Assembly: GCF_003790525.1 (NCBI RefSeq)
Contig: NZ_CP033635.1
Direction: 5' to 3' (one strand)
From: Escherichia coli
GTDB taxonomy: Bacteria; Pseudomonadota; Gammaproteobacteria; Enterobacterales; Enterobacteriaceae
DNA: 64,000 nucleotides
In this document: positions 21,597 to 56,793 of the stretch, piece by piece
Layout of the letters: each line of letters starts with the position of its first letter
Numbering within the stretch: position 1 is the stretch's first letter
Translations under genes and position numbers: made by a program
Notes under the pieces: generated by a model
Seen by the model: the letters and a program-made list of their open reading frames with translations, nothing else
Told to the model about the DNA's origin: nothing
Databases searched by the model: none

Positions 21597-23436
<1,840 letters not shown>

Positions 23437-23464
23437 ATCCTTTTCAGCCGCGTAATGGCTTGTT

Positions 23465-23480
23465 TGCAAAGCGGATGCCA
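23465..23480 (-). promoter_or_regulatory. Sigma54 (-24/-12) promoter element for the rut operon
   Basis: Minus-strand TGGCAT-ccgct-TTGCA with consensus GG/GC spacing, about 30 bp upstream of the rutA ATG. Confidence 0.55.
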
Positions 23481-23544
23481 GTTTTTAAAAAGCGAATGTT
23501 ATTAATGTGTTAATGTTTGGTTGTCTGAAATATCTGGAAAAAAG

Positions 23545-23560
23545 TGGACTAAACGGTCAA
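23545..23560. promoter_or_regulatory. Candidate RutR operator in the rutR-rutA intergenic region
   Basis: TGGACTAAACGGTCAA resembles the RutR palindrome TTGACCAnnTGGTCAA (imperfect). Confidence 0.35.
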
Positions 23561-23666
23561 AACAGTTGCACATAAAACATGCATCCGTGCGCGATGAGAG
23601 TGCAGAAGGTCGAGGCCGGGCGGGGGTTTTGCTATCCTGTTGCCAATCTACAAGAGGGGAGAGCGC

Positions 23667-24305
23667 ATGACGCAAGGCGCAGTGAAAATAACGGGTAAAC
23701 GTTCGCGCGCAGTAAGCGCGAAGAAAAAAGCGATTCTTAGCGCAGCACTGGACACTTTTTCACAATTCGGTTTTCACGGCACAAGGCTGGAGCAGATCGC
23801 AGAGTTGGCAGGCGTTTCAAAAACCAATCTGCTGTATTACTTCCCGTCAAAAGAGGCGCTGTATATAGCCGTACTGCGGCAGATTCTCGATATCTGGCTG
23901 GCACCGTTAAAAGCGTTTCGTGAAGATTTCGCCCCGCTGGCGGCGATCAAAGAGTACATCCGTCTGAAGCTGGAAGTCTCACGCGATTATCCGCAGGCTT
24001 CACGTCTGTTTTGTATGGAGATGCTGGCAGGCGCGCCGTTGTTAATGGATGAACTGACGGGCGATTTGAAGGCATTAATTGATGAGAAATCGGCGCTGAT
24101 TGCCGGTTGGGTAAAAAGCGGCAAACTCGCGCCGATTGATCCGCAGCATTTGATTTTTATGATTTGGGCTTCCACTCAACATTACGCCGATTTCGCCCCT
24201 CAGGTGGAGGCGGTGACAGGCGCGACGTTGCGCGATGAGGTATTTTTCAATCAAACGGTTGAAAACGTGCAGCGGATTATTATTGAGGGGATTCGACCAC
24301 GTTAA
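23667..24305 (+). CDS. rutR: TetR-family pyrimidine utilisation regulator RutR
   Basis: ATG 23667 (MTQGAVKITGKRSRAVSAKKKAILSAALDTFSQFGFHGTRLEQIAELAGVSKTNLLYYF...), TetR HTH, 212 aa. Confidence 0.9.
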   Translation: MTQGAVKITGKRSRAVSAKKKAILSAALDTFSQFGFHGTRLEQIAELAGVSKTNLLYYFPSKEALYIAVLRQILDIWLAPLKAFREDFAPLAAIKEYIRLKLEVSRDYPQASRLFCMEMLAGAPLLMDELTGDLKALIDEKSALIAGWVKSGKLAPIDPQHLIFMIWASTQHYADFAPQVEAVTGATLRDEVFFNQTVENVQRIIIEGIRPR

Positions 24306-55740: not shown

Positions 55741-56793
55741 ATGCCAGTGTTACACAACCGCATTTCCAACGACGCGTTAAAAGCCAAAATGTTGGCTGAG
55801 AGCGAACCGCGAACCACCATTTCGTTTTATAAGTATTTCCACATCGCCGATCCTAAGGCGACCCGTGACGCTTTATATCAGCTGTTTACCGCGCTGAATG
55901 TTTTTGGGCGAGTGTATCTGGCGCATGAGGGCATTAACGCGCAAATCAGCGTACCTGCGAGCAATGTTGAAACATTTCGCGCGCAGCTTTATGCCTTCGA
56001 CCCGGCTTTAGAGGGCTTACGCCTGAATATCGCGTTGGAAGATGACGGGAAATCCTTCTGGGTACTGCGCATGAAGGTCCGCGATCGTATCGTTGCCGAC
56101 GGTATTGACGATCCTCACTTTGATGCCAGCAATGTGGGTGAGTATCTGCAAGCGGCGGAAGTGAACGCCATGCTTGACGATCCCGATGCATTGTTTATCG
56201 ACATGCGTAACCACTATGAGTATGAAGTGGGGCACTTTGAAAACGCGCTGGAAATTCCGGCAGATACCTTCCGTGAGCAGCTGCCAAAAGCAGTTGAGAT
56301 GATGCAGGCACATAAAGATAAAAAAATCGTCATGTACTGCACCGGCGGCATTCGTTGTGAAAAAGCCAGTGCCTGGATGAAACATAACGGATTCAATAAA
56401 GTCTGGCATATCGAGGGTGGAATTATTGAATACGCCCGTAAGGCGCGCGAGCAGGGCTTGCCGGTGCGTTTTATTGGCAAAAATTTTGTTTTTGACGAGC
56501 GGATGGGCGAACGTATATCTGATGAGATTATCGCGCATTGCCACCAGTGCGGTGCGCCGTGCGACAGCCATACCAACTGTAAAAATGATGGCTGCCATCT
56601 GCTTTTTATTCAGTGTCCAGTATGTGCGGAAAAATACAAAGGTTGTTGTAGTGAGATTTGCTGCGAAGAAAGCGCGTTACCGCCAGAGGAACAGCGACGC
56701 CGTCGGGCAGGACGTGAAAATGGCAATAAGATCTTTAATAAGTCTCGTGGACGTCTGAATACAACACTGGGCATTCCTGATCCAACAGAGTAA
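55741..56793 (+). CDS. trhO: tRNA uridine(34) hydroxylase TrhO (rhodanese-domain protein YceA)
   Basis: ATG 55741 ([43 protein letters not shown]...), 350 aa, rhodanese active-site Cys ([12 protein letters not shown]). Confidence 0.88.

Follow-up and report, generated by a model that had tools for sequence, protein, structure and literature searches.

Sigma-54 promoters of the glnAp2 and glnHp2 type are built on a GG-N10-GC core with tandem NtrC dyads ∼100–140 bp upstream, and glnHp2 has an IHF site between enhancer and promoter. The promoter of the rutABCDEFG operon of Escherichia coli shares this core, has putative NtrC dyads at this distance, and likewise shows a conserved IHF-like site between enhancer and promoter. 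It differs from these relatives in that its putative NtrC dyads are weak matches to the consensus, in that the site of a TetR-family repressor lies between enhancer and promoter, and in that the same region also serves a divergent sigma-70 promoter.

That repressor, RutR, also binds elsewhere in the genome. The RutR box of carAB P1 belongs to the same 16-bp dyad family as the box upstream of rutA and is likewise bound by RutR and released by uracil (PMC4325133, PMC2475637). However, the carA site is the better match to the consensus (13/14 vs 11/14 for the rutA box) and lies far upstream (−184.5), where the effect of RutR is positive, by anti-repression, as opposed to negative at rut (PMC4325133). 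The rut operon itself has been described as sigma-54 and NtrC dependent (Nguyen Le Minh 2015, PMC4325133; also a 2024 paper).

Organization of the rutR–rutA control region

We analysed a 64,000-base stretch of E. coli DNA (the window). Over all 64,000 bases the window is 99.994% identical to E. coli SMS-3-5 (NC_010498.1), from which it differs by three substitutions and one single-base deletion, and its rut region aligns to that genome at full length. The genes run rutG-F-E-D-C-B-A (minus strand), rutR (plus strand) and then putA; K-12 has the same order, with divergent rutR and rutABCDEFG next to putA. The segment 23437–23666 is exactly the 230-bp gap between a K-12-type rutA ATG (23436) and the rutR ATG (23667). 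The features of the region are as follows:

22289–23379, minus strand: rutA, disrupted by the loss of one T from a T4 run (AAA at 22772–22774 on the plus strand)
23377–23391, minus strand: Shine-Dalgarno GAGAGG (23391–23386) and rutA ATG (23379–23377), beginning MKIGVF...; the PGAP start in SMS-3-5
23434–23436, minus strand: legacy K-12-type rutA ATG (382-aa annotation; b1012 = 1149 bp)
23465–23481, minus strand: sigma-54 (RpoN) promoter of rutABCDEFG, CTGGCATCCGCTTTGCA, identified by exact match, position weight matrix (PWM), K-12 identity and conservation
23498–23513, no strand assigned: AT-rich conserved block between the RutR box and −24, TTAACnnAnTGATAA on the rutA strand
23545–23560, no strand assigned: RutR box (operator), TGGACTAAACGGTCAA, identical to the published box, top PWM site and conserved
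23567–23583, no strand assigned: putative NtrC-like dyad, proximal (site B), TGCATGTTTTATGTGCA on the rutA strand, centre about −121
23588–23604, no strand assigned: putative NtrC-like dyad, distal (site A), TGCACTCTCATCGCGCA on the rutA strand, centre about −142
23667–24305, plus strand: rutR, intact, 212 aa, divergent from rutA, its DNA identical to SMS-3-5 RutR; the product is a TetR-family repressor sensing uracil/thymine

The region is almost certainly the divergent rutR/rutABCDEFG control region of E. coli, a two-input switch governed by NtrC/sigma-54 and by RutR. An earlier note, made from the letters of the window, had read it as an NtrC/sigma-54 and RutR control region, and this reading holds: both motifs are identical to their K-12 counterparts, are published as bound and are conserved across the Enterobacterales. 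The control region has already been well studied; the element is known and there is nothing new in it. It offers textbook-level dual control, by nitrogen status (NtrC/sigma-54) and by pyrimidine availability (RutR), and its recovery here matters little beyond correct annotation. What the comparison below contributes is a footprint that pins two putative NtrC dyads and an IHF-like block, whose sequences we did not find in the literature on the region, and a correction of the rutA start, the downstream ATG (23379) being the conserved one.

Relative to K-12, the −24/−12 17-mer, the 16-bp RutR box, the Shine-Dalgarno sequence, both candidate rutA ATGs and both NtrC-like dyads are identical, with one substitution between the two dyads at 23587. 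The differences are ∼ten substitutions in the AT-rich spacer 23485–23540, between the RutR box and −24, and a −1 frameshift in rutA that is private to the window. Nearly all intergenic differences between the window and K-12 cluster in this spacer.

We scanned species-representative genomes with RutA, which returned 80 loci, 78 of them with enough upstream sequence. The genera include Escherichia, Klebsiella, Raoultella, Enterobacter, Kosakonia and Buttiauxella, as well as Erwinia, Pantoea, Serratia, Yersinia, Rahnella and others. In the window the intact rutR adjoins the RutR box, and of the 78 other loci, 74 likewise have a divergent rutR upstream of their rutA.

A conserved sigma-54 promoter upstream of rutA

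The earlier note had pointed to TGGCAT-N5-TTGCA with textbook spacing on the rutA strand. We find it as TGGCATCCGCTTTGCA at 23480–23465 on the minus (rutA) strand, where it reads TGGCAT-CCGCT-TTGCA, with the −24 GG at 23479–23478 and the −12 GC at 23467–23466 in the GG-N10-GC spacing. This is the single exact TGGCAY-N5-TTGCW in the 64 kb, against 0.23 expected by chance. The identical 17-mer of K-12, CTGGCATCCGCTTTGCA, is the sigma-54 ChIP-seq site OS10, which is assigned to rutA (Bonocora 2015, PMC4591121); the same source gives it a PSSM score of 9.96, a distance to the K-12 ATG of 18 nt and an EcoCyc status of ‘P’ (predicted). In addition, a gSELEX peak of the RpoN holoenzyme lies in the rutA/rutR spacer (1073268), both with and without NtrC. 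Among the other loci analysed, −24/−12 is exact in 78 of 78, and the spacer N5 varies freely.

The earlier note had also proposed scanning with position weight matrices. We built a leave-one-out sigma-54 PWM from the 41 other ‘intergenic sense’ ChIP-seq motifs (Bonocora 2015, PMC4591121). The rutA site scores 14.4 bits, inside the training range of bound sites (8.6–21.7 bits; rank 32/42 among real sites), and this is the second-best score among the ∼128,000 positions of the window. A random sequence of 64 kb would contain ∼1.9 sites scoring this well or better, so the score by itself cannot decide the matter, and the sigma-54 call rests on identity to the K-12 ChIP-seq site.

The top sigma-54 PWM match in the window is TTGGCAAAAATTTTGTT at 56474–56490 on the plus strand (14.9 bits), which falls inside trhO/yceA and is without the −12 GC. 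It may be an intragenic sigma-54-like site or a chance match. Bonocora 2015 also tabulates an antisense site, OA02, beside rutR; its exact string does not occur in the window.

A literature search turned up no mapped transcription start for rutA. The listed OS10 distance of 18 nt fits a start ∼12 nt after the GC, so transcription is predicted to begin at ∼23454, 18 nt before the ATG at 23436.

The RutR box

Upstream of this promoter the earlier note had placed an imperfect RutR-type palindrome as a candidate, about 80 bp away. The position is right: on the rutA strand the box starts 80 bp upstream of the T of TGGCAT, and its centre lies 114.5 bp ahead of the rutR ATG and, counted from the predicted rutA start, at about −98. 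The word ‘candidate’ understates the case, because the box is letter for letter the published one and thus an established operator. It is identical in K-12, and the same 16-mer appears in Table 1 of Shimada 2008 as the rutA/rutR intergenic target (11/14, −114.5; PMC2475637), where the rutA ChIP-chip target was reported to match the previously known RutR-binding site. Four substitutions in the box abolish uracil-sensitive autorepression of rutR (Nguyen Le Minh 2015, PMC4325133), and the box has been located downstream of the rutR start and upstream of the sigma-54, NtrC-regulated rutA promoter (PMC4325133). Binding of RutR to this box (boxrutA) was also followed by EMSA and ITC (2024 paper).

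How well the box stands out depends on how it is scored. It matches the RutR consensus at 11/14 positions, with the key positions A4 and T13 present, and has three mismatches to TTGACCAnnTGGTCAA. Three such sites occur in the window against 2.8 expected, and mismatch counting, which at three mismatches performs no better than chance, was dropped as a test in favour of a PWM. The leave-one-out RutR PWM, trained on the 18 other RutR ChIP-chip sites (Shimada 2008, PMC2475637), puts the box at 15.8 bits, the top score in the window, with the runner-up at 11.8 bits and 0.1 sites of this quality expected by chance per 64 kb.

A RutR-like box is found upstream of the rutA promoter in 78 of 78 loci, 77–90 bp away. 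The distance from the start of the box to −24 falls into two classes, 77–81 bp (35 sequences) and 88–90 bp (44 sequences), which differ by about one helical turn.

In Serratia, Yersinia and some Erwinia/Pantoea (loci L050, L051, L058, L062, L066, L072, L076 and others), another RutR-like box, with ≤3 mismatches, follows the first one ∼19 bp closer to the promoter. E. coli has one RutR box only.

NtrC-like dyads and the AT-rich block

A search of the intergenic region for the NtrC consensus TGCACCAnnnTGGTGCA with ≤3 mismatches found no match. Two NtrC-like dyads surfaced only via a relaxed core search combined with conservation. Site A has four and site B five mismatches to the consensus, so that both are weak matches; they nevertheless retain the terminal TGCA/GCA cores, and site B is the sole TGCA-N9-TGCA in the window. 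Their centres are 21 bp apart. In nearly all loci the two sites keep fixed offsets from the RutR box, −23/−24 for site B (consensus TGCCTGnTTTnTGTGCA) and −44/−45 for site A (consensus TGCACCnTnnTnGCnCA). The spacing between the RutR box and the proximal dyad is 6 bp here and is kept at 6–7 bp across Enterobacterales families.

Published data support binding of NtrC at the locus. An NtrC ChIP-seq peak of 94-fold was assigned to ycdMLKJIHG (= rut), under ‘pyrimidine degradation’ (Brown 2014, PMC4066584). By our own coordinate conversion its interval maps to ∼23423–23503, over the promoter and not over the dyads; it lies within ChIP resolution of the dyads and does not pinpoint them. The tables of the gSELEX paper list rutA for the RpoN holoenzyme only, not for NtrC alone, and NtrC sites are drawn in the rutAG panel of the 2024 paper according to its figure legend. 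We infer that the exact NtrC dyads are those at 23567–23583 and 23588–23604.

Between the RutR box and −24, the AT-rich block at 23498–23513 is conserved and partly palindromic. It contains an IHF-like 13-mer, TATTAATGTGTTA, at 23500–23512 on the plus strand, with one mismatch to WATCAANNNNTTR; of the 79 sequences, 59 have a best match with no more than 1 mismatch, and its offset is mostly the same. The block is a putative IHF site, and it may instead, or also, be the −35 region of rutR. A sigma-70 scan of 23300–23800 on both strands found no promoter-like site. As a guess, the rutR promoter might consist of TTAATG, 18 bp and TGAAAT at 23526–23531.

The stretch that would hold the rutR −10 reads TAAAAT in K-12 and TGAAAT here. 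Because the differences from K-12 include this would-be −10, the strength of the rutR promoter may differ between lineages.

A proposed mechanism and its alternatives

Together, these elements suggest how the switch may work. Sigma-54 RNA polymerase would sit on −24/−12 (23481–23465) as a closed complex, and its firing would need phosphorylated NtrC, which is made under nitrogen limitation. NtrC~P would assemble on the two tandem dyads ∼120 and ∼140 bp upstream (23567–23604) and contact the polymerase via DNA looping, with a bend at the AT-rich IHF-like block (23498–23513) probably aiding the loop. In the absence of uracil and thymine, a RutR dimer would occupy its single site at 23545–23560, 6 bp from the proximal NtrC dyad. 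From this position, just downstream of the rutR sigma-70 start, bound RutR would repress rutR and dampen the activation of rutA, and uracil would release it. In exponential phase and without nitrogen limitation, rutA mRNA does not rise when RutR is lost or acetylated (2024 paper). The effect of RutR on rutA is therefore either conditional on activation by NtrC or weak, and AND-type logic fits this result.

The most economical guess as to how RutR interferes with rutA activation comes from the juxtaposition of RutR box and NtrC dyad, conserved in all lineages examined, and from the conserved helical phasing: RutR would repress rutA by anti-activation, acting at the enhancer and not at the promoter. 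A TetR-family dimer at this place could block assembly of the NtrC oligomer or the IHF-assisted loop, for which an unannotated IHF-like block lies between box and promoter, and its occupancy of the same site would in addition put a roadblock in the way of the divergent rutR promoter. We put this forward tentatively, as a reading that has a reasonable chance of being right and a larger one of being wrong.

A less likely alternative is that the box is an autoregulatory operator of rutR and nothing else, with rutA under NtrC and sigma-54 alone and the box lying ahead of the rutA promoter just because the two genes happen to be divergent. The location of the box downstream of the rutR start and the loss of autorepression when it is mutated (PMC4325133) would be expected of such an operator, rutA mRNA was unchanged in exponential phase when RutR was absent or acetylated (2024 paper), and the mechanism by which RutR acts on the sigma-54 promoter was stated to be unknown (PMC4325133), repression of rutA never having been worked out. 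The mRNA observation was made without nitrogen limitation, however, when the promoter is off anyway, and published statements have RutR repressing both wings (PMC4325133; 2024 paper). An incidental box is also at odds with its 6–7 bp spacing to the proximal dyad, conserved across Enterobacterales families, and with a phased distance to −24 that is conserved in two classes one helical turn apart. Further removed still, and very improbable in our judgement, is the idea that −24/−12 marks non-productive sigma-54 binding or a chance match and that rutA is transcribed from a sigma-70 promoter. In its favour, the PWM score of the site taken by itself is at chance level, numerous sigma-54 sites seen by ChIP are not known to be productive (PMC4591121), and the literature search yielded no mapped rutA start. 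Yet no sigma-70-like promoter appears in 23300–23800 on either strand, −24/−12 has stayed exact in 78 of 78 other loci while N5 drifted, an NtrC ChIP peak lies at rut (PMC4066584) and the operon is reported to be NtrC dependent (PMC4325133; 2024 paper).

Start codon and leader of rutA

The distance from the promoter to the gene depends on which rutA start is used. The earlier note had set the promoter about 30 bp upstream of the rutA ATG; this is correct for the legacy ATG at 23436, which is separated from TTGCA by 28 nt, and incorrect for the conserved start at 23379. From the latter, PGAP annotates a rutA of 363 aa, beginning 57 bp further on than the legacy ATG. The Shine-Dalgarno GAGG and the ATG of the MKIGVF start are kept in all genera examined. 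Outside Escherichia the in-frame ATG upstream is not conserved, and even within this genus, at locus L004, the extension is broken after 18 nt. With the conserved start at 23379, the leader transcribed from the promoter most likely measures ∼75 nt instead of 18 nt. Across genera the length of this leader ranges from 30 to 159 nt. An Rfam scan of 23300–23720 gave no family match, and hence no known RNA element in the rutA leader.

A private frameshift in rutA

The earlier note had reported a frameshift in rutA, and both alignment and translation bear this out. Compared with SMS-3-5, one nucleotide is deleted (AAAA to AAA on the plus strand); RutA goes out of frame after residue 202 of its 363, and a premature stop follows at 22749–22747. 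If induced, the operon would yield a truncated RutA with 202 native residues. We searched 5,426 complete E. coli genomes with a 61-bp query spanning the deletion and obtained no exact match. Among the three other differences from SMS-3-5, a silent change in wrbA (17094, I72) and ghrA G174S (37340) are likewise private to the window among these 5,426 genomes. At cbpA codon 110 (13049), by contrast, it is SMS-3-5 that has a rare allele, His, and the window carries the common Arg. The presence of the common cbpA allele argues that the window comes from a very close relative of SMS-3-5 and is not a corrupted copy of it.

The lesion would thus be either very recent or a homopolymer miscount or other sequencing error. 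The same two options had been raised in the earlier note, and they agree with the homopolymer context, with 0 of 5,426 genomes sharing the deletion and with only three other differences from SMS-3-5. That the strain has a working rut operon, the frameshift being an error of sequencing or assembly, strikes us as nearly an even bet, if slightly on the losing side. A single base is missing from a 4-base homopolymer, the deletion is private among the 5,426 genomes, and two of the three other differences from SMS-3-5 are private too. These other private differences are substitutions, however, not homopolymer indels, a run of four is short for systematic homopolymer error, and a close relative of SMS-3-5, as the common allele at 13049 marks the window to be, could carry real recent mutations. 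We therefore flag the private frameshift as a possible sequencing error, to be considered before the strain is called Rut-negative.

The promoter beside the lesion is indeed intact, as the earlier note had said in calling it conserved despite the disrupted gene, but this is no sign of selection. With a lesion so recent there has been no time for decay, so intactness says nothing about selection on the promoter; an intact promoter is expected here whether the cause is a recent mutation or a miscount.

Elsewhere in the window lies torS (TMAO sensor kinase; ∼3037–5780, minus strand), which the RefSeq record of SMS-3-5 annotates as a pseudogene with a frameshift. Since the window is identical to SMS-3-5 at torS, it carries the same lesion.
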